A stretch of 61,614 nucleotides of DNA from Pyrinomonadaceae bacterium. Lineage in GTDB: Bacteria; Acidobacteriota; Blastocatellia; Pyrinomonadales; Pyrinomonadaceae. A program made the translations under genes and the position numbers. The stretch spans positions 1 through 61,614 of the forward strand of contig DATDFT010000076.1 of the NCBI GenBank assembly GCA_036522475.1, given 5' to 3'. The notes beneath the pieces were generated by a model. It did not search any database and was not told the origin of the DNA. It was given only the letters and a program-made list of their open reading frames with translations. Below are positions 33,982 through 55,487 of this stretch, piece by piece (positions within the stretch are counted from its first letter, which is position 1; each line of letters begins with the position of its first letter).

Positions 33982-34239
33982 ATGCTCACCATTACAAATC
34001 GCACGAGGCAGCTACTCATTGTCCCGAAGAACAGTGGATCGTCGGTATATCTCGGACCAGGTGAAGGCGCGAAGATGCCGAGAACCGAGATCGATGGCAA
34101 TACCAAGATTGAGAAACTCGTTCGCACAGGCGCTGTGTCAGTCGGCGAGGCTGCGCCGCAGTCTATGCCCGAAGCCGCTGTGAATCCTGAGCCCGAAGAG
34201 GAAGCTCCTCGTTCCAAAAAATCGAAGCCTCAGAAATAG
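33982..34239 (+). CDS. Small protein (85 aa) at the head of the eCIS operon, unknown function
   Basis: An AAGGAG RBS lies 9 nt upstream. The C-terminal half is disordered and charged (PEAAVNPEPEEEAPRSKKSKPQK). Confidence 0.55.
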   Translation: MLTITNRTRQLLIVPKNSGSSVYLGPGEGAKMPRTEIDGNTKIEKLVRTGAVSVGEAAPQSMPEAAVNPEPEEEAPRSKKSKPQK

Positions 34240-34273
34240 ATAAATCCATCCACAGCTAAGAAGGAGAATAGCG

Positions 34274-36640
34274 ATGGAAACTTTGCATCCAGGTGTCTAC
34301 ATCCAGGAAATCCCCAGTGGGCTGCGTCCTATTGAAGGGGTCAGCACATCGAATGCGGCCTTCATCGGCAAATCGCAAATGGGTCCGCTCAACCAGGCCA
34401 AGCTGGTGACGAACCCGCAGGAATTCGAAAACGCTTATGGCGGGTATTTAAGCGACAGCTCCCTGGCATTCGCTGTTCACCAGTTTTTCAACAACGGCGG
34501 GAAGAAGGCCTACATCGTCAGAGTCGCCGGCACAGGTGCGGTTGCAGCCGACATAAGTATCAAGGATCGGAAGGGAGCAAAAACGCTCACCATCGAAGCG
34601 GCAAACGAGGGAGCCTGGGGAAACAAGCTCGACGTTGTCATCACCGATGGACAATTGGATCCCGGCAACGAGTTCACCATCCAGGTTTATAAGGACCGCA
34701 GCGACCTGGTGCCGCCACTCTCCCCGCTCCTGCTCGAGACTCACAAAAATCTCAGCATGAATCCCGCTGCGAAGAACTACGTCGAGAACGTAGTTAACGC
34801 AAACTCGAAGTATGTGGCGATAACGGTCGATGTAACGAATAACGCGACTGCGAACGCCGGGACAAGTCGAAGTGGCCAACTATCTATAGGTAATGGCGCC
34901 GTCGCTTTGAAGCTCGGCATAGCCAACGGCGGAACTGAGGCTGCGGGTGGAGTTGGCACTAACGGAACGAGTCGAAGCGGCGCCACTCCTTCAACTAACC
35001 CGCCCGCCGATCAACGCAAGTTCCTGATCAACCTTGATGGTGACGGTGCCCAGGAAATAACGATTCCAGCCACAGCGGCAACGGGCGACGACATCGCAGC
35101 CGAGATACAAAAAGCAGTTCGCGCTCTGACTGCGAACACTCCTGCCAATCAGCCCGCGTTCGACGGTTTCACTTCTTCTTACGACGTTTCGGTCGCCGCA
35201 GGAAATCCGTCGTACAAGCTCTTCTCCGGCACCACGGGCGCAGGCTCTTCTGTCGTCGTAACCAACTCCGCTTCAAATGCGATCAGTTTACCTGCGGGTG
35301 TGAAAAAGTTTGTCATCGAAATAGACGGTGATGGACCACACGTTGTTACGCTATCGGCCGGAGCTCTGGCGAACGGTGCTGCAATTGCCACGGACATCCA
35401 GAACGCCGTCCAGGCGTTGATACCGAAGCGGGCTGCGAATACGGCGGCATTCAAACCACCGCCGGCTCCAGGATTTACCTGCACCTACGACACGTCTGCG
35501 GCCGCCGGCAATCCGTCGTTCTTACTGACAAGCGGAACCCCGGCAGGAGCCGGGAGGCTCAATTCCTCAGTGCGCGTGACTGACGCACCGAGTGACAACG
35601 TCGCCGCCACACTCAAGCTCGGACTAAAAAACACCGGCACTGAAATCGGTGGCTCGGCGATACTGCGTCCCGCTAATTCGAAGGTTCCAGGATTTCCCGG
35701 AGACACTGAATATCACCTGGGCGACGCGTCGGTAATCGGCAACGTCGCCGGCCCGCCTGTTTTCGGAAATGACGGTTCGCAGCCGCAGGCGGCGGATCAC
35801 AAAAATGGCTTTACGGCGCTCGACGTGGTTCGCGACGTCAACATCGTTGCTGTTCCCGGCATCGGCGACGCAGACGTAGTTGGCTTCGGAGCGAGTTACT
35901 GTGCGCTCCGTGGCGATTGTTTCTTCATTGGCGATACGAAAGTCGACGATGACACTGTCGAGGAGGCAAAGCTCTTTATTGACAGTCTCGATAAGACCTC
36001 GTACGCCGCAGTTTACTTTCCGTGGCTGAAAGTCTCTGACCCGACCGGGCAATCTCCTGAACCAATCAAGGTGCCACCGTCTGGTTTTGTGGCCGGCTTG
36101 TATGCGCGCATCGACGCGAAGCGCGGCGTGTGGAAAGCACCCGCCGGCACTGAAGCGAGCGTCAACGGTGCACTGAGTCTGTTGGCCGATATCACGGACG
36201 TCCAACAAGACTTTCTGAATCCGATCGGCATGAATGTCATTCGTCAATTTCCAGGTGCGGGCAGAGTGGTCTGGGGTACGCGGACTCTCGCCACTGTCAA
36301 AGACCCGGAATACCGTTATGTACCTGTGCGGCGAACGGCAATCTTCCTCGAGCAGAGCATCTACAACGGAATTCAGTGGGCCGTGTTTGAGCCGAATGAT
36401 GATGACCTGTGGGCCAGCCTGCGGCTCAACATCGGAGCGTTCATGACATTGCAATTTCGAGCCGGAGCATTTCAGGGCAAGTCGGCGAAGGATGCTTTCT
36501 TCGTCAAGTGTGACAACGAAACAACGACACAGGGAGACATCGACGCCGGCATCGTCAACATACTGGTCGGGTTTGCGCCATTGAAGCCGGCAGAGTTTGT
36601 CATCCTGAAGCTGACACAGATCGTGGGCCAGCAAGCCTAG
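34274..36640 (+). CDS. Contractile tail sheath protein (Afp2/Cis2-like) with a large inserted domain pair
   Basis: 788 aa. N-terminus METLHPGVYIQEIPSG and C-terminal block GVWKAPAGTEASVNG...NPIGMNVIRQFPGAGRVVWGTRTL are typical of the phage/CIS sheath family. An AAGGAGAA RBS is present. Confidence 0.95.
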   Translation: METLHPGVYIQEIPSGLRPIEGVSTSNAAFIGKSQMGPLNQAKLVTNPQEFENAYGGYLSDSSLAFAVHQFFNNGGKKAYIVRVAGTGAVAADISIKDRKGAKTLTIEAANEGAWGNKLDVVITDGQLDPGNEFTIQVYKDRSDLVPPLSPLLLETHKNLSMNPAAKNYVENVVNANSKYVAITVDVTNNATANAGTSRSGQLSIGNGAVALKLGIANGGTEAAGGVGTNGTSRSGATPSTNPPADQRKFLINLDGDGAQEITIPATAATGDDIAAEIQKAVRALTANTPANQPAFDGFTSSYDVSVAAGNPSYKLFSGTTGAGSSVVVTNSASNAISLPAGVKKFVIEIDGDGPHVVTLSAGALANGAAIATDIQNAVQALIPKRAANTAAFKPPPAPGFTCTYDTSAAAGNPSFLLTSGTPAGAGRLNSSVRVTDAPSDNVAATLKLGLKNTGTEIGGSAILRPANSKVPGFPGDTEYHLGDASVIGNVAGPPVFGNDGSQPQAADHKNGFTALDVVRDVNIVAVPGIGDADVVGFGASYCALRGDCFFIGDTKVDDDTVEEAKLFIDSLDKTSYAAVYFPWLKVSDPTGQSPEPIKVPPSGFVAGLYARIDAKRGVWKAPAGTEASVNGALSLLADITDVQQDFLNPIGMNVIRQFPGAGRVVWGTRTLATVKDPEYRYVPVRRTAIFLEQSIYNGIQWAVFEPNDDDLWASLRLNIGAFMTLQFRAGAFQGKSAKDAFFVKCDNETTTQGDIDAGIVNILVGFAPLKPAEFVILKLTQIVGQQA

Positions 36641-36692
36641 TGCGTTTTGAAAAAAACATCCACTTCAATTTTGATTGGCAGGAGAAACTGAA

Positions 36693-37193
36693 ATGGCACT
36701 ATTCACGGTAAATCCAACCCGCACGGCCCCGTATCGCGGCTTCAAGTTTCGCATCAAGATCGACAACGTGTACGTCGCGGGTATCAGCAAATGCAGCGCG
36801 TTGAAGAAGACTACGGAGATGGTTGAGTGGCGTGAGGGTGGAGATCCCAGCACCAGTCACAAGCTTCAGGGCAAGACGAAGTACGAGGCGATTACGCTGA
36901 CAGCAGGCGTCACTCACGATCTCACTTTTGAGACCTGGGCCAACTCGGTAAACAACTTCCTGGGAGACGGAAACGGCTCCAACAAGAACAGCCGGAAAGA
37001 CATCATCATCGATGTCTTCAACGAAAACGATCAGAAGGTGCTCTCTTACAAGGTATTCAAATGCTGGGTGTCCGAGTACCAGGCGCTACCCGAGCTCGAT
37101 GCGGGTTCGAATACGGTGATGATTACAACCATCAAGCTGGAGAATGAGGGCTGGGAGCGCGACACGTCGGTGACTGAGCCCACAGAGATCTAA
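36693..37193 (+). CDS. Contractile tail tube protein (T4 gp19 / Afp1-Cis1-like)
   Basis: Start moved to the ATG 6 nt after AGGAGA. YRGFKFRIKIDNVYVAGISKCSALKKTTEMVEWREGGD matches the conserved phage-tail-region tube signature. Confidence 0.9.
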   Translation: MALFTVNPTRTAPYRGFKFRIKIDNVYVAGISKCSALKKTTEMVEWREGGDPSTSHKLQGKTKYEAITLTAGVTHDLTFETWANSVNNFLGDGNGSNKNSRKDIIIDVFNENDQKVLSYKVFKCWVSEYQALPELDAGSNTVMITTIKLENEGWERDTSVTEPTEI

Positions 37194-37205
37194 CTCTTGA
37201 TCCGG

Positions 37206-38123
37206 ATGGAATCGCAAACCGCACAAATCTTTGACTTGCCAGGGGGGTATGTCGACGACGAGGGAGTCACTCATCGCGAGGTTGAGCTGGCTCCAGTTAC
37301 GGGGTTTGAAGAGGAGTTACTGGACAGCATTGGACCATCAGCGCGTTCAGCTCACGCACTGACGGCTTTGCTGACCCGCTGCCTGAGACGTATCGGCAAA
37401 CTGGCGCCAGTCACGGCTGCACTCGTGCGAGATCTGCTCATTAACGATCGAGAATTTCTGATGATGAAACTGCGTGAGCTCACTTTAGGAAAAGATCTCA
37501 AGGCAATAATTGTTTGCCGCGATCCGAAGTGCGCGCAGTCAATGGACATCGCCCTGAATCTCGATGACCTGAGGACGAATGTGAAGCCAGTCGATCGCCG
37601 CGTATTCAAGTTCGAGGTCGATGAAGCCGGAGAAACGTTTGCACTCGAGTTCCGGTTGCCGACAGGCGCGGATCAGGAAGCGTGTGCTGGTTTGGCCGCG
37701 GATCCCGAATCGGCGATCAACCAACTCCTGGCGCGAATTGTTCTGCGCGTGAATGACAACTGTTCCGTTGACGAGCAAACGATTGAAGCTCTTCCGTCCG
37801 GAGTGCTGAAGGAACTTGAACGACGAATAGAAGAGCTGGAGCCGCTTTTATCAATCGATCTCGAAGCTGCGTGTGTGGAGTGCGGTCAGTCTCTGGTGTC
37901 GCATTTCGACGTGACGTCGTTCTTCCTTGATGAGTTGCAACAGAACCGGCGTTTGCTCGAACGCGAAGTCCACTTCATTGCCTGGCACTATCACTGGCCC
38001 GAAAAGGAAATCCTGTCGCTGACGCGTCGCAAGCGCCGGCGATACATCGATCTAATCCAAAGCGACAGTTCGGTAGCGCTTGGCGCCGGCAGAACGATCG
38101 CGACGCTGCCGGCAAGTATTTAA
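37206..38123 (+). CDS. eCIS-associated protein with a Cys4 motif, in the tail-assembly-chaperone position
   Basis: 305 aa. It has CRDPKC (C-x4-C) and CVECG (C-x2-C). Its position after sheath and tube mirrors gpE-type chaperones in myophage tails. An alternative TTG start is at 37197. Confidence 0.5.
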   Translation: MESQTAQIFDLPGGYVDDEGVTHREVELAPVTGFEEELLDSIGPSARSAHALTALLTRCLRRIGKLAPVTAALVRDLLINDREFLMMKLRELTLGKDLKAIIVCRDPKCAQSMDIALNLDDLRTNVKPVDRRVFKFEVDEAGETFALEFRLPTGADQEACAGLAADPESAINQLLARIVLRVNDNCSVDEQTIEALPSGVLKELERRIEELEPLLSIDLEAACVECGQSLVSHFDVTSFFLDELQQNRRLLEREVHFIAWHYHWPEKEILSLTRRKRRRYIDLIQSDSSVALGAGRTIATLPASI

Positions 38124-38143: not shown

Positions 38144-39223
38144 ATGTCTGCTTACTTCGGAAATGGTTACTTCCTGAATATCCTGCAACGAGGTGCAGCT
38201 CCCGTTGGCAGGACGCACTCCGCGTTGACTCAGGCGCCGGTTAGATTGGAAGAAACAGTTACGACGACTTCTCACGCAGCGCCAGAAGTTTTCACACAGA
38301 CGTTTGCATCTCAAAACGATTCACTCGATCGTCCGCAGACGACTTCGACCGCTACTCAACCGCTCATAGAAGATCAACCAACAGAATCCCTGCACATCGA
38401 AGCGCCAGTAAGTCCGGTATTCGATATGCGCAGTCATTTCGAAATGACGCCGAACGCGACCCCGGAAGCGCGAGATACACCGGAATTGATCGCGCCGTTT
38501 CATTCGAGCGAGCCCGCGTCTCCGGCTTCGTTTGAAGTCACCGCGCATTCAACGATCGAACCTTTCGTACCAACTGTCGCTGACGAGTCGTTTGTCGCAA
38601 CTGAGAATCCACGCCCACGGCCCACGTCGAGCAGGGTTTTCGAATTGAGAATGCCGGAGAATTTTTTTGGTCACACAAGAGGCGAGACTTCGAGTGCTCC
38701 TGAGGTCAAACCGGCGCACATCGTTTCGGCAGTTCCCGATCTGCAAACCGAAAGTCAACCCGCAGTTGTGCATTTTCCAGAACCGGCAGTCCCCGCCGAA
38801 ATTACAAACGTAACGCAGACGCAGAGCGTAGTAATCCCTGAACGTACGAATGCGCTAACTGAAATTCAAACCATCGAACTGAGCCATCCTGGTCCAACCA
38901 GCGAACCGCAGGTGACTCCGCCACGACCTGTCGAAAATGAGGTTATGGTCCATGTGACCGCGCAACCCCCACGCCTCGTTGCCGCCGAGATTGTTGAAGC
39001 GCCAGACACCAAACCGAGAGTCGAACACACCTCAGCGCATCTGCAACCGCGACAGCCGTCGTTTGCGCCGGCTCCTGTGGTTCCGCCGGCGCGTCTGCAC
39101 ATCAACCGCGTGGACATCCAGGTCATAAACCAGGTTCCACCACCGCCGCCGGCAGCGCGTGTGCCGGATATTTCTCAACTGCTCGAGAAGAGGCACGCCG
39201 GCCGCGTCGAATTGCTCCTGTGA
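38144..39223 (+). CDS. Pro/Thr/Glu-rich low-complexity protein, in the tape-measure position
   Basis: 359 aa and largely low complexity. The C-terminus reads LHINRVDIQVINQVPPPPPAARVPDISQLL. The call is by position only. Confidence 0.4.
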   Translation: MSAYFGNGYFLNILQRGAAPVGRTHSALTQAPVRLEETVTTTSHAAPEVFTQTFASQNDSLDRPQTTSTATQPLIEDQPTESLHIEAPVSPVFDMRSHFEMTPNATPEARDTPELIAPFHSSEPASPASFEVTAHSTIEPFVPTVADESFVATENPRPRPTSSRVFELRMPENFFGHTRGETSSAPEVKPAHIVSAVPDLQTESQPAVVHFPEPAVPAEITNVTQTQSVVIPERTNALTEIQTIELSHPGPTSEPQVTPPRPVENEVMVHVTAQPPRLVAAEIVEAPDTKPRVEHTSAHLQPRQPSFAPAPVVPPARLHINRVDIQVINQVPPPPPAARVPDISQLLEKRHAGRVELLL

Positions 39224-39230: not shown

Positions 39231-40856
39231 ATGAGCTACCTGGCCATAGGTTCAGTAACAAAGAGCATAGCTGCGCTGCTGTCCGGAAAGTTGAACAAGC
39301 CGCAGCTCATGGGCAACGTGACGTTGAGAGTCACGACTTTGCCGCCCGACGACGCGCGTGTAGATGAAGCGGATGGAGTGAATCTTTTTCTGTACCGCGT
39401 TACAGAAAGTCCCTTTACCAAGAACATCGACTGGCGTGGCGATCGTTCGAACCCGACGCGGTCAAAACGGCCGCCACTCACTCTCTCGCTGCATTACCTG
39501 CTCACGGCGTATGCGAAGAAAGGTGACGGCACCGCCCAGGACGATATTACTGCACACCAGATTCTCGGGAATGCGCTGTCAATCCTGCACGAGAACGCCA
39601 CGCTCAACGATATTCACGACAGCGAATTCGATGCGGATCTGAACACAAATTTTGCCGCCGAGCTCAGAGACTCTTTCGAGAAGATCATCATCACTCCCGC
39701 TCCGATCTCGATGGAGGAGTTCTCGAAGATCTGGACCGGTTTGAGTAAAGCATATCGTCTCTCGTTCGCTTATGAAGTCTCGCTGGTCCAGATTGGTCCA
39801 TTGAATCCGCCTCAAGCACCCGCGCCCGCCGTACAGCAGATGTCACTTGCAGTCGGGACAATCGGACGCCCGCAGATCGGCGAAGTCAGTCCGGTTTCAG
39901 GCCAGGTGGGAACACAGGTCACGATCAAAGGCAGCGGTTTCAAGGTCCGCGGCATGACCACGATCGTTACTGTCGGTGAAGAACAGTTTGCCGAAGCCGA
40001 TCTGTTGAAACTCACCGCGAATGAAATCGTGGTCAAGATTCCCGAGGCGCCTCAGCGTGGTCCAAAACTGCCGCTGGTTGTTTCGGTGGGCGGAAGGAAC
40101 AGCGAGCCGGCCTCTTTTGAAGTGACGCCATGGATCGAAAGGATCTCGCCATTCAGAGGCGTCACGAATATTCCGATCACGATCCCGTTCGATGCCGCCG
40201 GCGCGGCAGTGACTGCAACGGTCGGAGGCGTAGCGGCTGTCGTGAACGTCGACGCTGCCAACAAGCTCGTGCGCGTCACTGTACCTAACGCGATCACTGC
40301 GAATGGGCCGCAGCTCGTGGTGTTGACCCTGGCGCCGGGCGGGAACACCAACGCCCGAATCTACGAACTCATTCCGCTGATCCTTACAGCGACCGTGACT
40401 CCGGATATCCCCGCCGGCAAGACCGCCATAACCATAACGGGCCGCCGCCTTGCCGGAACTGATGTGAAAGTGAAGTACGGAAAACTTCTCATCAAAAAGA
40501 TGACGACCGCCACAGCGACTCAGATCGATCTCGAAGTGCCGCGAATCCTGCCGACTACCGACCCTGTCTCAGTGCTGATCGATAACCGCGAATCAAATCT
40601 CTTGCCGCCGCAAATTCAGGAGATCGATCCGTCAGAAGCATTTCCGGGAGGTCAGATCAGGATTAGCGGCGCGGGTTTGAGTGGTGAAGCCGTCTCGGTC
40701 AGTTTCGGTGCGGTGAACGTGAACCTGAACGCGCAGCCGTTTTCGAGTCAAATCAGCATTGCCGTTCCCGACCCGCTTGGTCCAGGCGTAGTCGCGGTCA
40801 AGGTTACGGTGAACAGCATAGACAGCAATACGCAAAACTTAACGGTGCTTGGGTGA
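39231..40856 (+). CDS. Tail terminator/cap protein (DUF4255, Afp16/Pvc16-like) fused to ~4 IPT/TIG-like Ig domains
   Basis: Start moved to MSYLAIGSVTKSIAALL. DUF4255 hallmarks are VNLFLYRVTESPFTKN and LSLHYLLTAY. The C-terminal half holds PQIGEVSPVSGQVGTQVTIKGSGF, PWIERISPFRGVTNIPITI, ITITGRRLAG and PQIQEIDPSEAFPGGQIRISGAGL. Confidence 0.8.
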   Translation: MSYLAIGSVTKSIAALLSGKLNKPQLMGNVTLRVTTLPPDDARVDEADGVNLFLYRVTESPFTKNIDWRGDRSNPTRSKRPPLTLSLHYLLTAYAKKGDGTAQDDITAHQILGNALSILHENATLNDIHDSEFDADLNTNFAAELRDSFEKIIITPAPISMEEFSKIWTGLSKAYRLSFAYEVSLVQIGPLNPPQAPAPAVQQMSLAVGTIGRPQIGEVSPVSGQVGTQVTIKGSGFKVRGMTTIVTVGEEQFAEADLLKLTANEIVVKIPEAPQRGPKLPLVVSVGGRNSEPASFEVTPWIERISPFRGVTNIPITIPFDAAGAAVTATVGGVAAVVNVDAANKLVRVTVPNAITANGPQLVVLTLAPGGNTNARIYELIPLILTATVTPDIPAGKTAITITGRRLAGTDVKVKYGKLLIKKMTTATATQIDLEVPRILPTTDPVSVLIDNRESNLLPPQIQEIDPSEAFPGGQIRISGAGLSGEAVSVSFGAVNVNLNAQPFSSQISIAVPDPLGPGVVAVKVTVNSIDSNTQNLTVLG

Positions 40857-43090: not shown

Positions 43091-43106
43091 AATCGGTGAA
43101 GTACGA

Positions 43107-46973: not shown

Positions 46974-47336
46974 ATGCCAGGAGTCTTAACAGAAGGAAGC
47001 AACGTCACCTGCGGACACAGTCCCGGCAAGGTGTCGACTACTGGTTCGTCGAAGTTAAAGGTCAGTGGTCAAGCGGTGTTGCTGAAAGATGGAATCAACG
47101 GGAAATCAGTTAGCGGCTGTGGGACTCCACCCGCTTCCGATGTCTCAGGTCCGACAGCGATACCTTGTCTAACGGTGACTACCGTAACAACAGGTGAAGC
47201 GACCAAGCTCACGATTGGTGGCGCTCCCGTAATGCTGGACACGCTGGCAGGTCAAACCGATGGAATGGTTGGGAAGGTCACTCCGCAACTGTTGTTATCG
47301 GCGACGGCGGTGCAGACGAAACTGACAACAAGTTAA
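46974..47336 (+). CDS. PAAR-like spike-tip protein (Afp10/Cis10 position)
   Basis: 120 aa immediately after the spike gene. It is Gly/Val/Thr-rich with conserved-looking Cys (NVTCGH, SGCGTPP, IPCL). No canonical PAAR triplets were seen, so the call rests on size, position and composition. Confidence 0.5.
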   Translation: MPGVLTEGSNVTCGHSPGKVSTTGSSKLKVSGQAVLLKDGINGKSVSGCGTPPASDVSGPTAIPCLTVTTVTTGEATKLTIGGAPVMLDTLAGQTDGMVGKVTPQLLLSATAVQTKLTTS

Positions 47337-47341: not shown

Positions 47342-47701
47342 ATGGACAAGACTGGCTGGTCATTCCCATTCAACATCAACGAGCTCGGGCGCGTCGATAC
47401 CGCCTCGGGCAATGACGACATTCGCAACAAGGTCTTGCAGGTGTTGCTGACGTCTCCGGGTGAACGGGTCAACTTGCCGGAATTCGGCTGCGGCTTACGC
47501 GACCTTGTTTTCGATCCGAATAACGAGATCCTCGCAGCGACTACTGAATTCACGGTCCGAAAGTCTCTGCAACGCTGGCTCGCCGAAGACATCATTGTTC
47601 AGGCCGTGGACATACATAACGACGAAAGCTCAGTGATGGTCGAAGTAGCTTACTTGAGACGAGATCAATTACAGGCGGACAAAGTGAAGATAACTTTTTA
47701 G
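47342..47701 (+). CDS. Baseplate wedge protein gp25 / GPW family (Afp9/Cis9-like)
   Basis: WSFPFNINELGRVDTASGNDDIRNKVLQVLLTSPGERVNLPEFGCGLRDLVFDPN is the classic GPW_gp25 signature. Confidence 0.9.
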   Translation: MDKTGWSFPFNINELGRVDTASGNDDIRNKVLQVLLTSPGERVNLPEFGCGLRDLVFDPNNEILAATTEFTVRKSLQRWLAEDIIVQAVDIHNDESSVMVEVAYLRRDQLQADKVKITF

Positions 47702-47721: not shown

Positions 47722-49326
47722 ATGGCCATTATCAATCTCAGGGAAAACCGCCAGGTCATCGATTACCTGGCCCGCGACTACAACAGCTTTCGCAAAGCGT
47801 TAGTCGATCTGATACCGGCGAAGCTGCCTGAGTGGACCGATCGTTCAGAGGCAGACTTCGGCGTCGCGCTGGTGGAGTTGTTCGCCTACATGGCGGATAT
47901 TTTGAGTTACTACCAGGACCGCATCGCGAATGAAGCTTTTCTCACGACCGCACAGGAACGTCGCAGTGTAATCAATCACCTTCGGCTCATCGGCTACGAG
48001 ATGACTCCGGCATCCGCCGCGTCCACCACGTTGAATCTCATCGTCGGGAATGCCGTGACGCTACCTTTTGAAGTACGAAAAGGAGATCAATTCGCCACCA
48101 AGGGCGCCAAAGATCGCAAGAGTGTGACTTTCGAGTACACGGGAGACAAACCACTCGTGATCGATCCGGTCACGATGCCTTCCGTGCCGGCAAAAAATCC
48201 GGATGGCTCGCCACTCATCGGTTCCAAAGAATTCCAGAATGTGATTCCCGTCCGTGAAGGCAAAACGATCTCAAACGAAGTGATCGGCGTTTCTGATGGC
48301 CGGCCAAATCAGCGCTACACGCTGGCCCAACCGAACTTGTTGCAAGGCTCGCTGGAAATCGTCGTCGACACGACGGTGCCGACGCCGGCGTGGCGACTGC
48401 GGGACAAACTAATCTTCAGCCGCCGTGCGGTCACTCCCGAACAGCTTGTTGCTCTCGAAGCTCAGGAACGCATCGGCTCGACACTCGCATTCAGCGGTGA
48501 CACAGATACCGATTACGCGATCGAGACAGATGAGGACAACGTGACGACAGTGATCTTTGGCGACGGGCAGTACGGGAGAATCCCTCCAACCGGTCGCCGA
48601 ATTATCGCGAGTTACAGAACCGGTGGCGGCGCAGTGGGCAATGTCGGCAAAGAACAGATCACGCAAATACTCAAAGGCCCGCAACTACAGTTGCTCGGAA
48701 TAAAAGTGATCAATCGAGCTCCGGCGAGCGGAGGCGCGGAACGCGAGTCGATCGATCAGGCAATCAAGTATGCGCCTTCGGTGTTTGCCTCGATGCAGCG
48801 TGCAGTCACTGCTCAGGACTACGTGGCCCAGGCGAGACTCTTCCCCGGAGTTTCGAAGGCCCGCGCGGAAGCTGCAAGTTGGAATATCGTCAAGCTCTAC
48901 ATCGCTCCCACCGGTCAGGGCGAACCTCCAACGGACGTGATGAAGCGCGATCTGCTTACTTACTTCGAAGACAAACGCATGCTGACCAGCATCATCGAGA
49001 TCGAGAGTCCTGACTACGTGAAGATCGATGTCCAGGCCAACGTCGTAGCGCAGCGCCATTTTAGAAACAGCGACGTACTGGACGACGCTGATACGGCGGT
49101 GAGGGACTTATTTGATTTCGAAAAGGTTGACTTCAAGCAGACGCTGTATCTCAGCAAGATTTACGAAAAGCTCGAAGCACTCGACGGTGTTGACAGTGTG
49201 TTTGTCAGCCGTTTTCAGCGGGCCGATGCTGGAGCAGGCATCGCAACGGATGGCTTGATTCAACTTCTGGAAAATGAAATTCCCTTGATGGGCCAACTCG
49301 TCATCAACGTGAGCGGAGGCGTTTAG
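47722..49326 (+). CDS. Baseplate J / gp6-like protein (Afp11/Cis11-like)
   Basis: DYNSFRKALVDLIPAKLPEWTDRSEADFGVALVELFAYMADILSYYQDRIANEAFLTTA, and C-terminal GGAERESIDQAIKYAP. Confidence 0.9.
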   Translation: MAIINLRENRQVIDYLARDYNSFRKALVDLIPAKLPEWTDRSEADFGVALVELFAYMADILSYYQDRIANEAFLTTAQERRSVINHLRLIGYEMTPASAASTTLNLIVGNAVTLPFEVRKGDQFATKGAKDRKSVTFEYTGDKPLVIDPVTMPSVPAKNPDGSPLIGSKEFQNVIPVREGKTISNEVIGVSDGRPNQRYTLAQPNLLQGSLEIVVDTTVPTPAWRLRDKLIFSRRAVTPEQLVALEAQERIGSTLAFSGDTDTDYAIETDEDNVTTVIFGDGQYGRIPPTGRRIIASYRTGGGAVGNVGKEQITQILKGPQLQLLGIKVINRAPASGGAERESIDQAIKYAPSVFASMQRAVTAQDYVAQARLFPGVSKARAEAASWNIVKLYIAPTGQGEPPTDVMKRDLLTYFEDKRMLTSIIEIESPDYVKIDVQANVVAQRHFRNSDVLDDADTAVRDLFDFEKVDFKQTLYLSKIYEKLEALDGVDSVFVSRFQRADAGAGIATDGLIQLLENEIPLMGQLVINVSGGV

Positions 49327-52121
49327 TGCAGGTCCTGGATTTAACAGCTGAGGCCCACCCGAATGGTAATCGAGTGGATCTTGTGTGGAAAAATCCCACT
49401 GAAGCGAACTTCAGAGGAGTGAAGATTCTCCGGCGTGAAGTTACGTATCCGGAACTGCCTGCTGACCTGAATTCGATCTTCCAGATCCACGATGAACCGA
49501 TCGCCCTCACTCCGGCCGGCGCAGACGCACACTTTTCCGATGTCGGACTCAAGAGTGAAACCGTTTACTACTACGCGGTCGCCGCCTACGACGATACTCT
49601 GCCTACTCCCAAACATTTTCCCGTTTTCATTTCGTGCATGCCGACAGGTGCTTACGGAAGTGCCGGCACGATGTATAGAAACCTGCCGGCGCTCTATCAA
49701 CGGTTTGATCTGTTGAAGCCTCCGAATGCGCCGGAAGTCGATCCGGATGACAAAGACAAGGGGCAGTTGCTGCGTTTTATGGAACTGGTCGGACCGCAGT
49801 TTGACTTGTTGCGCAGCTTTGCACGAGCAGGACGTGACTTCTCCGACGTCAACCGCATCGACGGCGACCTGTTGCCGCTGCTCGCTGATTGGATTGGTTG
49901 GGAGAGTGGATTCAATCTGCCGCTCGCCAAACAGCGCAACGAGCTCAACTATGCGCCGCACTTTTATCGGACCACCGGAATCGCCGCGAACTTACGTGCG
50001 ACGCTCAATCGAGTCACGCCGTGGCCGTTGCAGATGAAAGAGTTCGTTCACAACGTCTTTCTTTCAAACCATCCCGAGCAACTGCACATCTGGGAAATCG
50101 ATCAACTTGGCGTTGCCGGACACGATCCGCAAATGGTTACGATCGACATGGCCTATGAAGGTAAGCCTGTCGCTCTTCAAGCCGCTGACGGCAGGGTCTG
50201 GCTCTTCTATCATGCCCGTCGATCAGTGCCGACTCCTCAAGGCCCCGAAGATCATTTTCAGACTTATTACAAGATCAACGATCAGGGTCGATGGCTGCCC
50301 TCGCGACGTGTGACCGAAGGGACCGCCGACAAATATCCGGCAGCGATTCAAAGAGCCGACGGAAGTTTCTGGTTGTTCTGGACCGCACACGAAGACGTTG
50401 GCGGCGCCGTCCTGCCGCAGATCAGAAGTGAGATCTTCGCGGCCGGCCGCGATGCAATCCGTCCACGCAGACTCGGAACTCTTTCAGGACCATTCGCTGT
50501 TGCGGATGGCGACCTGTTTCGCATAACGGTGACTTTAGGCACTCAAACTGTCACGCGGCGAGTCAGGCTGCACCTGGAATACTTTCACACGGTCAATCTG
50601 GTAACTGCTACTGCCACTGCAACGGCTCAGGAGATGGCGGCTGTACTGAACCGCGAGATACCGGGCGTTGAAGTCAGCGTCAATAAAGACGGACAAATTT
50701 TGATCGAGGCAATCGCTGCCGGCAGTACGTCGAGCCTTGACCTGCCGGCATCCACCGTTGCAACAACGCTTGGTCTGGCCACCGGTCTCACTGCGGGAGC
50801 TGATGCGACTTCAGCTCAGTTGTTGAGCAACGCTGGACCAATCAATTTGGCTCCGGACGACACGCTCACGATTCGCATCGATTCGAACGCAACCGCCACG
50901 ATCACTTTTAAGGCGACTGACTTTGCGAATATCACGACGGCAACTGCGGCGGAGATTTCAGCCGCGATAAACAAGGTTCAGCCCGGAATTGCTAAAGATA
51001 GTGGCGGCCGAGTAATGCTTGCGTCGCAGACAGCGGGCGAAGGTTCGTTTGTCACTGTGGTGACGGATCCTTCGAGTGCGGGGCCAAAGCTTGGTTTCGG
51101 AGTTTCGCTTCCCGTGGCTTCGCCCAACCCTGCGGCTGACAGTGAACCGAGTGCATTCAAAGATGCAGGCAACAACGTTTGGCTGTTCTGGAGCTCGCGG
51201 CGCGGTGGTGGTTGGAACGTTTGGTACAACCGTTTTGATGGAACTAATTGGGGCGTAGCGAAACCATTAACTATCGGAAGCGAATCCGATCGCGAGCCGT
51301 GCGCTGTGTTCGATCCAGCAGGAAGGATCTGGGTGTTCTGGAGCCGCAAGAAGAATAACGGTCTCTGGAATATTTTTTATCGCACCACGACTCAGTTGGA
51401 CTTCAATCTCCTGACAGACGCTCTTTGGAGTGTGGAACGCGAGCTCACCCCGATTCCAACGACTTTTGACAACAAAGAACCGGCCGCGGTTGTGACTGCC
51501 GCGAACACAGTCCAACTGTTCTTCGCTTCGAATGTAACTGACGGATTCCATATCAGGTCTGCCGTTATCACACCCGCGAATCAGGCAGCCGATCAGCCTC
51601 ATACTTCCGGCCAGTTCAGTCATCACGCTCCTGCCGCACTGCGAGTGGCGAACGTAACGCGTCTCCTGTTTCGCAGCAACGAGAGCGTCTCTTATTCCAG
51701 CAATCTCTACCCGACCGCGGTAACTATCGACGCGCGTTATGCCGGATCGACTACGACTGATACAGACAACACCTTGAAACTCGGAAATCATGAAAAGTTT
51801 GAAGACATCGAGGGTTACATCTTTGATACCGAGACAGGCTCAGACAACTGGTACGCGCGAAACGTGATCGGGATCTTCGTTTCTGCAAACACAAACGATC
51901 AGGACGTAATCAACCGCACTTTGATCAGCATTGAAGGCGCCGTGAAACGCTTTCTGCCGATCCAGGTGCGCGTAGTTTTAATACTCGAGAGTCTGGCCGG
52001 GTTCCTTTTCCTTCGAACCTGGAAGGCGGGAGTACCAAGCGGCGAATTGCCGGACCTTAACGTGGCGCCTCCGGATCTCTCATTTCGCCTCTTTCAGCCA
52101 GGCGTGACCGAAGGAGTATGA
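49326..52121 (+). CDS. Giant baseplate protein, P2 gpI-like N-terminus (Afp12/Cis12 position), with W-rich propeller-like repeats and two inserted sheath-type modules
   Basis: YRNLPALYQRFD, LLRFMELVGPQFDLL, LLPLLADWIGWE and NYAPHFYRTTGIAANLRATLNRV match the gpI-like tail protein family. Repeats GRVWLFYHARR, GSFWLFWTAHED, NNVWLFWSSRRGGGWNVWYNRF and GRIWVFWSRKKNNGLWNIFYR follow. Confidence 0.8.
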   Translation: MQVLDLTAEAHPNGNRVDLVWKNPTEANFRGVKILRREVTYPELPADLNSIFQIHDEPIALTPAGADAHFSDVGLKSETVYYYAVAAYDDTLPTPKHFPVFISCMPTGAYGSAGTMYRNLPALYQRFDLLKPPNAPEVDPDDKDKGQLLRFMELVGPQFDLLRSFARAGRDFSDVNRIDGDLLPLLADWIGWESGFNLPLAKQRNELNYAPHFYRTTGIAANLRATLNRVTPWPLQMKEFVHNVFLSNHPEQLHIWEIDQLGVAGHDPQMVTIDMAYEGKPVALQAADGRVWLFYHARRSVPTPQGPEDHFQTYYKINDQGRWLPSRRVTEGTADKYPAAIQRADGSFWLFWTAHEDVGGAVLPQIRSEIFAAGRDAIRPRRLGTLSGPFAVADGDLFRITVTLGTQTVTRRVRLHLEYFHTVNLVTATATATAQEMAAVLNREIPGVEVSVNKDGQILIEAIAAGSTSSLDLPASTVATTLGLATGLTAGADATSAQLLSNAGPINLAPDDTLTIRIDSNATATITFKATDFANITTATAAEISAAINKVQPGIAKDSGGRVMLASQTAGEGSFVTVVTDPSSAGPKLGFGVSLPVASPNPAADSEPSAFKDAGNNVWLFWSSRRGGGWNVWYNRFDGTNWGVAKPLTIGSESDREPCAVFDPAGRIWVFWSRKKNNGLWNIFYRTTTQLDFNLLTDALWSVERELTPIPTTFDNKEPAAVVTAANTVQLFFASNVTDGFHIRSAVITPANQAADQPHTSGQFSHHAPAALRVANVTRLLFRSNESVSYSSNLYPTAVTIDARYAGSTTTDTDNTLKLGNHEKFEDIEGYIFDTETGSDNWYARNVIGIFVSANTNDQDVINRTLISIEGAVKRFLPIQVRVVLILESLAGFLFLRTWKAGVPSGELPDLNVAPPDLSFRLFQPGVTEGV

Positions 52122-53491
52122 CGATGGGCGATTTTTCAAGAGACCCTGAAACAACTTTCCAGGACGCAATCAACAAAAACTATTGCCGCGTCCGATTCCA
52201 GCAAGGCAAACCTCTGTTGGACCGCGAACTGAATCTGTTAGGAGACATTGCCAGCCCGCAGCGATTCGCGGGCGTGAATTTTGGTAACGGTGTGCGCGGT
52301 GAGGGAAACGATTTTCTGATCACCGGACTCAGCGTTCCCAACAACGACTTTACGATCACGGCCGGCACTTGTCTGGTGAATGGTCTCGAAGCCGTCCTCG
52401 GCGCAAACGTCAGTTACAAGAACCAGCCGAACAATGACAACGTTGCCGCATTGCCGGGCGGTGCAAGCAACGTCTACCTGCGTGTGTTTAGAACCGAAAC
52501 TGCCGGCGCGGACGACGCGCTTCTCTTGAATGCCGGCGACGTGGGCTCTGAGACGGCGATTCGGGAAAAGGTGGATTGGGAAGTACTGGTTACCACGCAA
52601 AACATCGATGCCATCGATCATTTTCTGCTGGCGTCAATCAACACTGCCGGACCGAGTGTTCAAGATCGCCGACGCAAAGGTCTGAATGTCGGGTCGATAC
52701 GTGATGAAGTAACCACTGCGCGTGGCTCAACTCCGCAACTCGCTTTGCGGCTCAATGCCAGCCTGACAGCGGCGGGCGCTCTGCTGCCGAACATAGTTAC
52801 CGGTAACCAGATCGCTGATAACGGTGTTTCAACCACCAAGATCGCCGACAACGCAGTCGTCACTCAGAAGATTGCGGACAATGCTGTTACCTCGCAGAAG
52901 ATCGCGGACAACGCGGTTGTCACTCAGAAGATCGCCGACAACGCTGTTACCTCGCAGAAGATCGCCGACAACGCCGTGACGGTGTCCGAGATCGCGGACA
53001 ATTCGGTAGTCACGAACAAGATCGCAAACAACGCCGTCATCGGCAGCAAGATCGCAGACGGCAATATCACGTCAACCAAGATCGCTGCTCAGGCGGTTAC
53101 CGAACCGTCACTCGCAAACAATTCGGTTTCCAATCGGACCATCGTCGCCGGAGCTGTTTCAATCGCGAAGATGAATGCGTCGCAGATCGTGAACCTCCAG
53201 GTTACGGTGGCCGCAGCGCCCGCCGCAGGACAGCGCTCAGAAGCGGTCGTGACGATCCAGGAATCAGATGACACGGCATTCTTTCTCGTGAGTTGTCACT
53301 TTGATGGTCCACGTCCGGCCCTTCCTCCGCAAGCGATCTTATCGAGAACTTTTGACTGGCAATACAGAGTGGCACTCGCGAAGCCTCCGGGCCAGCAACT
53401 CTTTCGTCACTTTCACCAGGTAGTGATCCAGAATCCCAACACCGTAGAGATCACCGTCACTGTTCGCGGATTTCGGTTAGCTGAGACTTAA
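52118..53491 (+). CDS. Fibre-like protein with decapeptide repeats (Afp13/Cis13 position)
   Basis: An ATGA overlap joins it to the baseplate gene. The N-terminal module is YCRVRFQQGKPLLDRELNLLGD. About 12 tandem 10-residue repeats of type KIADNAV(V/T)xQ lie at 52802..53170. Confidence 0.65.
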   Translation: MTMGDFSRDPETTFQDAINKNYCRVRFQQGKPLLDRELNLLGDIASPQRFAGVNFGNGVRGEGNDFLITGLSVPNNDFTITAGTCLVNGLEAVLGANVSYKNQPNNDNVAALPGGASNVYLRVFRTETAGADDALLLNAGDVGSETAIREKVDWEVLVTTQNIDAIDHFLLASINTAGPSVQDRRRKGLNVGSIRDEVTTARGSTPQLALRLNASLTAAGALLPNIVTGNQIADNGVSTTKIADNAVVTQKIADNAVTSQKIADNAVVTQKIADNAVTSQKIADNAVTVSEIADNSVVTNKIANNAVIGSKIADGNITSTKIAAQAVTEPSLANNSVSNRTIVAGAVSIAKMNASQIVNLQVTVAAAPAAGQRSEAVVTIQESDDTAFFLVSCHFDGPRPALPPQAILSRTFDWQYRVALAKPPGQQLFRHFHQVVIQNPNTVEITVTVRGFRLAET

Positions 53492-53519
53492 GAAACGCAT
53501 GCGCAAGTGAGAGAAAATT

Positions 53520-55487
53520 ATGGGCAAGATATCGAGGGATTCATTTAAAGAGACGCATAACGTTCTCGGAGATTTGCGCGGGTTAACTCCCGTTGGGCCG
53601 AGTTCCAAATCGTACGTCAGTCTGCGTTTACAACAAGGCGTCCCTTTTCTCGATGCCGACTTCAACGAAGTAGACGACATCCGCCGCGCCGAGCTGGAAC
53701 TGATGTTGGCGAAGGCAATTGGAAACGGTGTGCCCGCTGGCAGCGATGGATTCAAGATTCTTGAGGCGACGACAACCAACAACTTCGTGATCGAGGCGGG
53801 CTTGTTGTTTCTCGATGGATGGTGGGTTTTCAATCCGGTGCGGATAGATTATTTGAACCAGCCGCATCGCACCGCTAAAGGTTTGGCGCCCCCGTTGCGC
53901 ATCTTGCAAAACATCCCCGCCGCGGACCAGGAAGTTGCTTATCTCGATGCCTGGGAGTTGGTAGTCGACTCGCAGGAAGACACGAACCTCATCAATCCAC
54001 GTATCGGTGTCGAGACGTGCAATCGTATCCAACGCGGTTGGGTAGTTCGGCTGGAGCCGGTTGTTGCCGGTATGAATCCCACAGATCCCACAACGTATCC
54101 AAACACGCAGCCGGGACATCGTTACTATCCGCTCAGCTTGATCAACCGGCCGGCGGGTGGGCAAATCTCAGCCGCCATGATGACTGATCTGCGCCGAACT
54201 TATCTCACCCTGGAAGCGACGACTTTCGCACCGCTCCTCATTGATGATGTCGCGCGCAATCAACGGCTCGATAGTCCGAGACTTGCAGGCGCATTCCGCG
54301 GACACCTCGACGCGATGCGTGATCTGCTGAATCGCAGTCCGGAAATTTTTGTCTTTCCGGCGAAACCTGCCGAAACCTCGCAGTCGACAACCGCGCTCAA
54401 TGATGTGCGTGCCTCAGCAATCTCGTTTGAACAGCAAGCGCGGAATCAATTGCTGCACAAAACAGCGGCGACTGACGCTATGCAGGTTTTCTCTCAAACA
54501 GAGCGCAACCTAAGCACCTTCCTGCAAACGTTGGTAGCTGGAGGTATCGCGGGTCCAGCGACTACAGACTTTATCAATATCTACCACAAGCACCTGGACG
54601 GCACAGTTCCGAACGATCCGCAAAGTCTTCAGTTTGCTCTCAATGCAAACGATCTGCTGGGGGCGGTTATGGCTCAGGAAAGGTTAAATGAGGAACTCGG
54701 ACTTCAGAATAATTCGTTGCCGGAAGGCACGGTGGCGGCGTCGCTGATCAGCATTACTCCTTCGGGACCGCTGGCCGATAAGACAGTTCATCCGCAGTAT
54801 CAGTTGACGATTCGCGTTCAGAGTAACCTCACTTCTTCGCCAGGCTCGGAAAAGATCCGCGCGATCGTCTCAGCCGGACCTGGTTGGACGCTGGTCTTTC
54901 AAGGCACGAGCGAACTCAATCAGAACGAGATCGTCGTGACTGTGCCGAATCAGCAGTCTGTAGACGTTGTTCTGAATATTTCAGCCGACGTGGGAGCCGC
55001 GGACACAACGTTGAATCTCTCAGTGAGGCCGGAACGACGCCAGCAACTGGTTTTCATTCTCACGCCACAGGCGATGAAGCTGGGGTCGGAGCTTCTTCCC
55101 AGCACCGTGCTTGCGACACTCACTTACAACGGCTCGTCCCCGATGTCCGCGCAGGGAGTGGTGAAAGCCGGCCGTGCGGTTATGGCGACTCCTGGTGGCC
55201 GCCCGATTGGCTGGCGCGTCATCAATCTCTCAGCGGCAACCGAAACCTACAAGGTAACGGTTACGCCACTCGCTGCGGCTACGGGCTGGATGGCAGTCAA
55301 TGAGCCGATACTTTCTCCGCTCGCGCCCGGTGCGCCACCTCGCGACTTCAACATCAATTTTGGAATTACCGATCAAGCCGGTGCAGTCAGTCCGCTTACC
55401 TACCGGTTGCAATTAACGCGCGTCACTGGCGGGGCAAACGATCCACTGCCAAACACGAAGGTCGATATCACGTTCGAATTAATCTGA
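53520..55487 (+). CDS. Second protein carrying the same N-terminal module, with a divergent C-terminal region
   Basis: YVSLRLQQGVPFLDADFNEVDD, GNGVPAGSDGFKILEATTTNNFVIEAG and YYPLSLIN are colinear with the first ~180 aa of 52118..53491. Confidence 0.6.
   Translation: MGKISRDSFKETHNVLGDLRGLTPVGPSSKSYVSLRLQQGVPFLDADFNEVDDIRRAELELMLAKAIGNGVPAGSDGFKILEATTTNNFVIEAGLLFLDGWWVFNPVRIDYLNQPHRTAKGLAPPLRILQNIPAADQEVAYLDAWELVVDSQEDTNLINPRIGVETCNRIQRGWVVRLEPVVAGMNPTDPTTYPNTQPGHRYYPLSLINRPAGGQISAAMMTDLRRTYLTLEATTFAPLLIDDVARNQRLDSPRLAGAFRGHLDAMRDLLNRSPEIFVFPAKPAETSQSTTALNDVRASAISFEQQARNQLLHKTAATDAMQVFSQTERNLSTFLQTLVAGGIAGPATTDFINIYHKHLDGTVPNDPQSLQFALNANDLLGAVMAQERLNEELGLQNNSLPEGTVAASLISITPSGPLADKTVHPQYQLTIRVQSNLTSSPGSEKIRAIVSAGPGWTLVFQGTSELNQNEIVVTVPNQQSVDVVLNISADVGAADTTLNLSVRPERRQQLVFILTPQAMKLGSELLPSTVLATLTYNGSSPMSAQGVVKAGRAVMATPGGRPIGWRVINLSAATETYKVTVTPLAAATGWMAVNEPILSPLAPGAPPRDFNINFGITDQAGAVSPLTYRLQLTRVTGGANDPLPNTKVDITFELI

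Follow-up and report, generated by a model that had tools for sequence, protein, structure and literature searches.

The 61,614-nucleotide stretch of contig DATDFT010000076.1 from a Pyrinomonadaceae bacterium (hereafter the window) carries a large gene block that encodes a contractile injection system (CIS), which the original prediction, made from the letters alone, had described as a complete Afp/PVC-like extracellular CIS (eCIS) lying between positions 33982 and 55487. The plus strand of this interval consists of 18 tightly packed open reading frames (ORFs) by the ORF listing, rather than the 19 co-directional genes counted before, with gaps of -20 to +34 bp between neighbors and a 269-bp spacer (43341-43609) as the sole exception (Table 1). 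The coupling sites quoted earlier are all present, namely GTGA at 40853-40856, TTGATTATG at 44338-44346, TGATG at 46264-46268, TAGTG at 49324-49328 and ATGA at 52118-52121. The boundaries were nevertheless drawn too narrowly: an upstream regulatory module (31555-33415) and three 3' genes (55489-60671), which follow at gaps of 1, 63 and 14 bp and among which the only candidate cargo lies, had been missed. With both included, positions 31555-60671 likely represent a chromosomal operon of about 29 kb, regulator included, that encodes a lineage II CIS of the eCIS superfamily in an uncultured soil bacterium.

The cluster is that of a complete CIS. Each of the eight core subunit types was recovered with the Pfam, NCBIfam and PHROGs profile libraries or, for the LysM protein, with a profile of homologs; the DUF4255/Pvc16_N cap and its AAA+ ATPase partner are among them, and the earlier reading of a complete contractile system of the eCIS superfamily stands; among the profiles it had suggested for checking, those for the sheath, tube, cap, ATPase, spike, gp25 and Baseplate_J all match. 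In the same three libraries g0, g1, g5, g8 and g19 have no match, and no window protein matches the Afp14/tape-measure or Afp10 (PAAR) profiles. No transmembrane (TM) segments are predicted in g1-g18.

Table 1. Features of the CIS locus (positions in the window; a dot marks features given without a strand)
Feature	Position	Strand	Matches and remarks
Sigma-54 enhancer-binding activator (bEBP)	31555..32910	+	Sigma54_activat 9e-59
Perfect 10-bp inverted repeat GGTGGGTCAC-CT-GTGACCCACC	32923..32944	.	~150 bp upstream of promoter
Sigma-54 -24/-12 promoter element TGGCTT-N5-TTGC	33096..33110	+	29 bp before g0 ATG
g0	33125..33415	+	96 aa; first gene 3' of sigma-54 promoter; sequence looks winged-helix-like
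Tandem hairpin-repeat arrays in 566-bp g0-g1 spacer	33426..33918	.	Units of 32 bp (x5.3) and 35 bp (x4.2), oppositely oriented
g1	33982..34239	+	85-aa conserved small protein; homologs directly 5' of sheath gene in 6 loci
Sheath (Cis2)	34274..36640	+	788 aa; Phage_sheath_1 and 1C
Inner tube (Cis1)	36675..37193	+	Phage_T4_gp19 2e-41; TIGR02241 2e-39
g4	37197..38123	+	308 aa, four Cys; PF12322 T4_baseplate 7e-15; phrog_150 (baseplate hub) 8e-16; DUF6760-like tail
g5	38144..39223	+	359 aa, Pro-rich; conserved N- and C-terminal motifs; low-complexity, length-variable middle
Tail terminator cap (Cis16)	39231..40856	+	Pvc16_N (formerly DUF4255) 6e-39; C-terminal IPT/TIG Ig-like domains, TIG 4e-23
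Cis15 ATPase	40853..43090	+	Winged-helix domain PF22977 7e-54; AAA 4e-38 in two stretches
g8	43071..43340	+	89-aa conserved small protein; 8 homologs in same slot
Nested palindromic element	43341..43609	.	43-nt arms 93% complementary; fills only large gap inside operon
Second tube-fold protein (tube initiator/adaptor; Cis5/Cis7 N-terminal part)	43610..44341	+	CIS_tube 2e-6, 28 bits vs cut-off 27
LysM/gpX-like baseplate protein (Cis7 C-terminal part)	44338..45138	+	Homolog profile; 170-aa clade-specific extension
gp27/gpD-like hub (N-terminal half of split Afp8/VgrG)	45151..46266	+	Phage_GPD 1e-6 and VgrG_rel 1e-20, both sub-cut-off
gp5/V-like spike (C-terminal half of split Afp8)	46266..46970	+	Phage_base_V 9e-23
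Spike-tip protein, PAAR-like by predicted fold	46974..47336	+	Foldseek on AlphaFold (AF2) model
gp25-like wedge protein (Cis9)	47342..47701	+	GPW_gp25 3e-14
gp6/J-like wedge protein (Cis11), single copy	47722..49326	+	Baseplate_J 2e-10; TIGR02243 2e-67
Cis12-like (gp7/gpI-type) giant wedge protein	49326..52121	+	931 aa; TIGR02242 domain 4e-7, sub-cut-off
Tail fiber	52118..53491	+	457 aa, 10-residue repeats; phrog_892 tail fiber 2e-31
DUF6519-family protein, second fiber/receptor-binding candidate	53520..55487	+	655 aa; DUF6519 direct E 0.011
g19, exported envelope protein	55489..57975	+	Signal peptide; starts 1 bp after the interval first described
Lgt (prolipoprotein diacylglyceryl transferase) paralog or ortholog	58039..58926	+	LGT 5e-57
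g21, candidate cargo/effector	58941..60671	+	576 aa; OmpA 3e-14; no signal peptide

Gene order and lineage

A scan of 185,579 GTDB species genomes with the ATPase returned 570 relatives, and the window proteins were mapped onto the 80 best loci. The best ATPase relatives, at 54-56% identity, are mostly from Pyrinomonadaceae, Blastocatellia and other Acidobacteriota metagenome-assembled genomes (MAGs), and the single top match is a Phycisphaerae MAG. The order sheath, tube, g4, g5, cap, ATPase, g8, second tube, LysM, hub, spike, tip slot, gp25, J and Cis12-like is found again in dozens of MAG loci spanning at least seven phyla (Acidobacteriota, Planctomycetota, Chlamydiota, Bacteroidota, Chloroflexota, Myxococcota and Proteobacteria), the MAG labels including Pyrinomonadaceae, Blastocatellia, Terriglobia, Phycisphaerae, Chlamydiota, Bacteroidetes, Promineifilaceae, Polyangiaceae, Thiobacillaceae and others. 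In Afp and PVC the cap and the ATPase lie at the 3' end of the operon. The order, the single sheath gene, the mid-operon cap and ATPase and the decorations, all of which had first been taken as unusual, are the norm for a widespread clade by this 80-locus synteny. Judged by its sequence, then, the locus is a member of a cataloged lineage II clade, and its gene order is normal for that clade.

The sheath has its best Protein Data Bank (PDB) matches in 9ezm (9e-90), 8bky (2e-85) and 8bl4 (2e-83), the latter two of which we take to be Streptomyces CIS sheaths, followed by Pvc2 (1e-45) and by Afp2/3 and the thylakoid-anchored CIS (tCIS) at 1e-45 or weaker. For Cis11 the sole significant CIS match in the PDB is 9gtp_1K (2e-17), presumably also from a Streptomyces CIS. 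Entry 9EZM is Cis2 of Halogeometricum borinquense (PMC11566945).

Chen et al. (2019, PMC6899500) assign a split afp8 to subtypes IIa, IIb and IIc and a single afp11 to Ia, Ib, IIb and IId; subtype IIb further has an afp6, divergent afp12/afp13 and no detectable afp10. The locus has its afp8 split into hub and spike genes and one Baseplate_J gene; by these published rules, rather than by a tree, it fits lineage II and appears most like dbeCIS subtype IIb. It also has a sub-cut-off TIGR02242 match in the Cis12-like protein, a fiber, and a tip protein that has no PAAR hidden Markov model (HMM) match and a PAAR-like predicted fold. The resemblance to IIb systems, which have been cataloged by bioinformatics only (PMC6899500), extends to the eight core subunits, the single sheath, the split afp8 and single afp11, what may be divergent afp12/afp13-like genes, the lack of an HMM-detectable PAAR or Afp14, and the presence of subtype-specific conserved genes without known domains in a synteny conserved within the subtype. 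The label Afp/PVC-like, which would imply lineage I, does not hold, for the sheath is nearer to lineage II structures, there is one sheath gene, hub and spike are separate, and no PAAR or tape-measure profile matches.

Comparison with characterized systems points in several directions. The H. borinquense CIS (an 'archaeal T6SS', T6SS being the type VI secretion system; clade IIa; PMC11566945) is likewise of lineage II, with a split hub and spike, a Cis12/Cis13-like peripheral baseplate and a cluster-linked membrane protein; it differs in having two cis11 genes, a plasmid-borne location in two subclusters and toxin-immunity pairs, and its anchor consists of six TM helices and a cytoplasmic domain, whereas g19 is predicted to be Sec-exported and mostly periplasmic or surface-located. 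For the Streptomyces coelicolor system CIS-Sc (subtype IId), two descriptions (PMC10066040, PMC12237407) report a single sheath, two tube-fold genes and no canonical tape measure, as here, but also a fused VgrG-like Afp8, no tail fibers, a cytoplasmic location and a role in mediating cell death; its effector candidates are small single-TM proteins, unlike g21. The lineage I systems Afp of Serratia entomophila and PVC of Photorhabdus share the contractile sheath-tube-baseplate, the DUF4255/Pvc16_N cap, the AAA+ ATPase and fibers with the locus, but they have three sheath paralogs, a contiguous VgrG-like Afp8, a recognizable PAAR and tape measure, and insect-active toxins; their 3' cargo is loaded through N-terminal leaders (10.1101/2023.11.13.566157, PMC11495950). 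The tCIS of Anabaena (7B5H; PMC8894136) is alike in its LysM Cis7, extended Cis12 and extra sheath and baseplate domains, but its anchor is a TM helix in Cis13 and it has a Cis19 crown, whereas no structural protein here has a TM segment, and its sheath is matched at only 4e-41. The T6SS lacks a J-type wedge and a cap (PMC6899500), both of which are present here.

Tail module

A surface insertion module of about 95 aa occurs twice in the sheath (residues 248-338 and 344-444) and twice in the Cis12-like giant (residues 395-498 and 511-608), which agrees with the decorated sheath and baseplate and the embedded repeat modules of the original prediction. Relatives carry one to three copies in the sheath, whose length ranges from 520 to 920 aa across related loci, and two in Cis12. 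A profile built from the module finds the insertion domain in the sheath of a myophage (7kh1, 5e-5), and one member of the set matches Flagellin_IN. Because the module recurs in relatives and matches the myophage domain, such decoration belongs to a type already known from sheaths, here common to a wedge protein too.

The two genes after that of the inner tube are less readily named. The protein first described simply as a Cys4 protein (g4) does have its four cysteines, and it now has a family match as well (Table 1); the g4 family is conserved in 69 ORFs of related loci, and a search against PDB sequences gave no match. Its position is the slot where phages encode a tail assembly chaperone, from which we infer a role as a hub or tape-measure assembly factor. 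The DUF6760-like C-terminal part, fused in the window, is a separate overlapping ORF in two related loci (L053, 16233-17194; L058, 6697-8375), an arrangement that recalls the frameshift-linked tail assembly chaperone pairs of phages. The g5 slot holds proteins of 210-560 aa in 11 loci, with conserved motifs near the N-terminus (..LR.GA..) and the C-terminus (L.I.RLDVQIINQ...LERRHLGR), and its position and conserved termini make g5 a candidate tape-measure or tube-lumen protein.

The cap measures about 545 aa with immunoglobulin (Ig)-like extensions in all close relatives and 400-430 aa in remoter ones, the minimal form being 186 aa, and the IPT decoration claimed for it is borne out by the TIG match. 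The ATPase combines a winged-helix domain with two AAA domains, the first degenerate and the second a canonical AAA+ domain, and the two stretches matched by the AAA profile agree with its earlier description as a double AAA+ ATPase.

The palindromic element that follows g8 divides the tail, cap and ATPase half of the operon from the baseplate half. Its predicted RNA fold has an energy of -144.9 kcal/mol (z = -10.7), it is present as a single copy in the window, and it is absent from distant relatives, in which the g8-g9 gap is below 120 bp. It could be an insertion resembling a miniature inverted-repeat transposable element or a repetitive extragenic palindromic (REP) sequence, or else a transcript-processing or attenuation structure.

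Baseplate, spike tip and fibers

The assignment of a LysM/gpX-like protein, made earlier from the sequence, is supported, but only through a profile of its homologs. The N-terminal-domain profile matches Kbp LysM at 2e-5 and, below threshold (E 0.015-0.46), the LysM proteins of the Streptomyces CIS, AlgoCIS and tCIS as well as T4 gp53; within the family, Phage_tail_X is matched by 11 of 18 members and LysM by 5 of 18. In three related loci (L022, L024 and L069) this domain is fused to the tube-like protein. Both hub matches fall short of their cut-offs, VgrG_rel scoring 73 bits against a curated cut-off of 275 and Phage_GPD falling below the Pfam cut-off.

The tip protein had been called PAAR-like. 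At the level of sequence this finds no support, as PAAR was not detected by Pfam, NCBIfam or PHROGs and a PDB sequence search returned noise; at the level of predicted fold there is a weak match, the top Foldseek matches of the AlphaFold model (predicted local distance difference test, pLDDT, 83.9) being the Pvc10 PAAR protein and a VgrG-bound T6SS protein (E 0.2-0.3). Its family comprises 72 hypothetical proteins of about 120 aa without a Pfam domain, in which Cys13, Cys49 and Cys65 are invariant and His15 nearly so. The closest named homologs are from 'Ca. Sulfotelmatobacter' and from Paraburkholderia tagetis and P. sacchari, where the tail-like cluster is a different one (L086). The slot itself is a variable cassette, since relatives (L002, L003, L005, L007, L011, L048, L056 and L064) hold unrelated small proteins there, of 161-178 aa, 86-126 aa or 260 aa.

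The giant wedge protein, which had been described as gpI-like, does carry a gpI-type domain, although below cut-off; homologs of 40-47% identity hold the same slot in relatives, and a search against PDB sequences gave no match. Two fiber-like proteins had been proposed at the 3' end of the interval. The first is indeed a tail fiber by its phrog_892 match, and its gene contains a coding tandem repeat at 52809-53059; the second, which shares the N-terminal domain of the fiber, is a DUF6519-family protein, whose same-slot homologs of 651-654 aa carry PF20129.

A conserved sigma-54 module upstream

The activator gene lies about 1 kb upstream of the CIS genes on the same strand. Its product has the GAFTDA loop and a C-terminal Fis-type helix-turn-helix, and in its pseudo-receiver N-terminus the phospho-acceptor Asp is replaced by Ala (VAVAMP). 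In 14 related loci from several phyla, or about 26 by manual tally, the sheath gene has such an activator within 6 kb upstream on its own strand.

The element at 33096 is the only good -24/-12 element in the 1.4-kb upstream region. A TGG-N9-TGC element lies 60-85 bp upstream of the start of the g0 tblastn match in all six related g0 loci checked, and with the window counted the motif precedes g0 in seven of seven; five of the six related elements score at least 9/11, against a strong-match background of 0.056 per kb. A loose scan of the whole window allowing two mismatches found 51 sites where 64 were expected, no better than chance, and the 33096 site is therefore credible because of its position and conservation only. 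Reading of 33596-33981 revealed no sigma-54 element before g1 or the sheath gene. The inverted repeat between the activator gene and the promoter could be an activator binding site or the terminator stem of the bEBP gene.

Homologs of g0 lie between the activator and the CIS genes in nine loci. In a Chlamydiota MAG (L008, 2403-2936) the g0 and g1 homologs form one frame of 177 aa, and the layout is compact, with promoter, fused g0-g1 and sheath gene following one another without the spacer of the window; this fusion suggests that the two small proteins work together. The atypical activator, the promoter and g0 constitute a regulatory head that is conserved across phyla, and the sigma-54 control predicted earlier, with an adjacent activator bearing a GAFTDA loop and a conserved -24/-12 element, thus has stronger support than a reader of the single sequence could know. 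Regulators that eCIS surveys name are GerE (LuxR-type), BTAD and RfaH (PMC8213781); sigma-54 activators are not named as eCIS regulators in the surveys searched.

Tandem repeat arrays occupy 33426-33595, 33762-33918 and 61372-61614 (the contig end), with units of 32, 35 and 42 bp built on the hairpin GCGCCAAAGGCGC, which is present 13 times in the arrays and 14 times in the whole window against 0.3 expected. The length of spacer and array varies among near-identical soil contigs (L081, L082 and L085). The g0-g1 arrays are probably REP-like insertions, and we infer that the 566-bp spacer was inserted later, the operon itself having its start at the sigma-54 promoter. Clustered regularly interspaced short palindromic repeats (CRISPR) were considered for the arrays and rejected, as the units abut without spacers.

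Downstream genes and candidate cargo

The g19 protein opens with a signal peptide (A|HNPG); some 750 residues of beta structure follow, and then a conserved Cys and, at the C-terminus, a TM helix with an RRRR tail. Its AlphaFold model (pLDDT 74.8) has a CBM9 fold first (1i82, 3e-7; TM-score 0.68) and then Ig-like sandwiches. Homologs of 42-53% identity lie directly 3' of the DUF6519 gene in all five CIS clusters examined, in one of which (L090) the g19 homolog stands between the DUF6519 gene and the ATPase, and the family is small, with 34 clusters at E<=1e-30 among 1.84 billion representatives. In L092 an LGT gene lies between the g19 homolog and two eCIS_core genes, LGT-domain genes are embedded in two further CIS clusters (L060 and L062), and Lgt and g19 homologs co-occur on contigs down to 52% and 44% identity; one Lgt homolog is from Pyrinomonadaceae. 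On these alignments, g19 is a conserved 3' accessory of the clade to which an Lgt gene is repeatedly linked.

The product of the last gene, g21, has an N-terminal leader (LQQQLGNRTVGRLIQ) and a Pro-rich linker, carries the putative HExxH motif VVHEAMHLF, and ends in an OmpA-like domain of the peptidoglycan-binding kind. In related clusters, eCIS_core proteins begin with a stretch to which this leader can be aligned (43% identity over 47 aa, E 1e-4). Its motif, [LIM][QP][QRH]x[LMFI]GN[QR][ATV], has one occurrence in the six frames of the window and ten in 1.55 Mb of related, mostly CIS, loci, in every case close to the N-terminus of a large CIS-strand (+) ORF and often 5' of an eCIS_core/DUF4157 domain; the loci concerned (L014, L016, L038, L060, L062, L088 and L092) include Methanosarcinales and Methanoperedens. 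We found no eCIS_core (PF13699) match in g21 even at E<=10, and no EQEAD motif, as in DUF4157 cargo, in any frame of the window. Toxins of eCIS are typically located at the 3' end (PMC8213781). Because the leader resembles eCIS_core N-termini and its motif is restricted, within these loci, to large CIS-strand ORFs, g21 is the best cargo candidate in the window, and lineage II systems in general may use the motif to tag their cargo.

In L092 the cargo region (13906-17682) continues with a VanY/Peptidase_M15_4 gene and two CHAT-domain genes. In the window, a 168-aa ORF on the minus strand (60678-61184) converges on g21; weighed as a possible immunity gene, it shows neither a signal peptide nor a family match.

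Mode of deployment

A mechanism can be proposed for the locus. A signal would activate the bEBP without phosphorylation, and the activator would open the promoter at 33096 so that the whole operon is transcribed. The particle would assemble in the cytoplasm, with a split hub and spike bearing a Zn-type tip protein and a baseplate made of the gp25, J and Cis12 wedges together with the LysM protein and tube initiator; the g4/g5 pair would set or fill the tube, and tube and sheath would polymerize and then be closed by the Ig-decorated cap. The AAA+ ATPase might aid assembly or load cargo with the LQxxxGNxA leader, of which the HExxH and OmpA-like g21 would be the only bearer in the window. As g21 has a peptidoglycan-binding domain without a signal peptide, its target compartment is suggested to be the cell wall or periplasm of other bacteria. 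The particles would then be released or exposed by lysis, and their fibers would bind targets, which is the least certain step; we favor it because the fiber-type proteins have no membrane anchors and because sheath and cap carry Ig-type decoration. Stress-linked deployment, as for tCIS, is possible by analogy.

A number of observations weigh against parts of this account. The word extracellular in the original prediction was an assumption; the nearest characterized systems are not extracellular, the closest of them acting membrane-bound or from the cytoplasm (PMC11566945, PMC10066040, PMC8894136), and no member of the clade has been studied experimentally. No lysis or release genes were found among the scanned ORFs of the window. 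The promoter element of the window is weaker than those of its relatives (8/11 specified positions), and it is separated from g1 by the 566 bp of hairpin repeats, which could terminate transcription. The chaperone role of g4 and the tape-measure role of g5 rest on position, the PAAR-like fold of the tip protein on a match with an E value of only 0.2, and the IIb assignment on published rules and not on a tree. Likewise, the cargo call for g21 rests on a leader similarity of about 47 residues, a putative HExxH and position; g21 lacks the eCIS_core domain seen in the cargo of relatives, and Lgt and g21 could simply be neighboring envelope genes.

Perhaps, then, the same machine is never a free particle and either fires docked at the envelope in the manner of a T6SS, or serves as a cytoplasmic, stress-triggered device for cell death or lysis as in Streptomyces and Anabaena, with g19 (and perhaps Lgt) as docking or exit site. 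We regard this as possible, though on the unlikely side. The closest solved sheaths belong to membrane-bound haloarchaeal and cytoplasmic Streptomyces systems (PMC11566945; PMC10066040), both of which are reported to need, or to go together with, a membrane protein encoded in the cluster (PMC12237407, PMC11566945); the retention of the envelope protein g19 in five of five clusters and the lack of lysis genes noted above fit the same idea. Yet no more than about 7 residues of g19 would remain in the cytoplasm, so that it could hardly touch a cytoplasmic baseplate directly, TM segments are absent from the structural proteins, and there is no TssJLM-like trans-envelope complex, whereas two fiber-type proteins, one with phage tail-fiber repeats, and the Ig-like decoration of cap and sheath are expected of outside-facing particles. 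We doubt that g19, Lgt and g21 are instead ordinary envelope housekeeping neighbors and that no cargo is encoded in cis. Lgt is an essential housekeeping enzyme in most diderms and present in one copy in the window, the OmpA-like domain of g21 is generic and comes without eCIS_core, and of five g19 contexts examined in other species four lack an adjacent Lgt. Against this reading stand g19 homologs in the same slot in all five clusters down to 42% identity, the LGT genes within L092, L060 and L062, a peptidoglycan-binding protein that lacks a signal peptide, a leader motif that, within the loci examined, occurs only at the N-termini of large CIS-strand ORFs, and gaps of 1, 63 and 14 bp that continue the operon. 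An idea that we hold with still less conviction is that g19 and the cluster Lgt form a dedicated envelope module new to CIS, in which Lgt would lipidate the g19 Cys, a presumed C-terminal 'lipobox' analogous to MYXO-CTERM-type sorting, and the resulting surface or periplasmic anchor would dock, display or release the particle, under a phosphorylation-independent sigma-54 activator; if true, the module would add to the ways in which diderm bacteria deploy CIS.

A defective prophage tail module or an R-type tailocin, finally, would account for sheath, tube, baseplate and fiber genes of phage derivation and for the label 'phage protein gp47/JayE' that annotators of the Joint Genome Institute (JGI) have attached to the J protein. 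We consider it very unlikely. A Pvc16_N cap and an ATPase joining winged-helix and AAA+ domains are present, and, as had been claimed before, no head genes lie nearby: capsid, portal, terminase, integrase and lysis families are lacking among the scanned ORFs of the contig, both in the 34 kb upstream and in the remaining downstream sequence, as are the Pfam families of the TssJ/L/M membrane complex, TssK, TssA, ClpV and Hcp. The window contains no tRNA genes and no GC shift, no sheath relative was found among 2.9 million IMG/VR contigs, and the same chromosomal neighborhood is found again in several independent soil metagenome assemblies.

Returning to a lineage II CIS that would act on other bacteria, its interest lies in what it adds to a sparsely sampled group. 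Lineage II accounts for most CIS diversity, and the handful of systems studied each differ, one being thylakoid-anchored, another cytoplasmic and linked to cell death, and another an archaeal T6SS-like device; the locus stands for a clade that crosses phyla and turns up repeatedly in soil metagenome assemblies, and of which no member has been studied. Its sigma-54 activator and promoter, both conserved, offer a possible handle to switch the system on. The LQxxxGNxA leader marks candidate cargo from Acidobacteriota to Methanosarcinales, and here it would mark a cell-wall-directed effector, suggesting bacterial targets, while the exported g19 and linked Lgt bear on how particles might meet or cross a diderm envelope. 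The activator, promoter and g0 module, the g19-Lgt accessory and a leader-bearing OmpA-type cargo are unmentioned in the eCIS literature searched. Follow-up is best directed at the sigma-54 module and the g19-Lgt accessory, which are moderately interesting, and at the cargo leader; these findings refine the catalog and do not overturn current understanding.

Chromosomal surroundings

Outside the CIS locus the 61.6-kb contig has an ordinary chromosomal content, with genes for a TonB-type receptor, a MacB permease, MscS, an acyl-CoA ligase, a TetR regulator, a HAD phosphatase, a CHAT-TPR protein and an S8 peptidase, and no Rfam family was found in the window. From the Lgt, OmpA-type and TonB-dependent receptor genes, the host is presumably a diderm bacterium. 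The gene for the CHAT-TPR giant (3387-7037) and the adjacent S8 peptidase gene lie about 27 kb upstream of the CIS genes. A HipA_2-type kinase is encoded on the minus strand (25014-25790) between housekeeping genes and the sigma-54 activator. Divergent from the activator, an Hsp70-like gene extends on the minus strand from 30354 to about 31650; its position is kept in same-species contigs, and in other contigs it is called at 425-434 aa.

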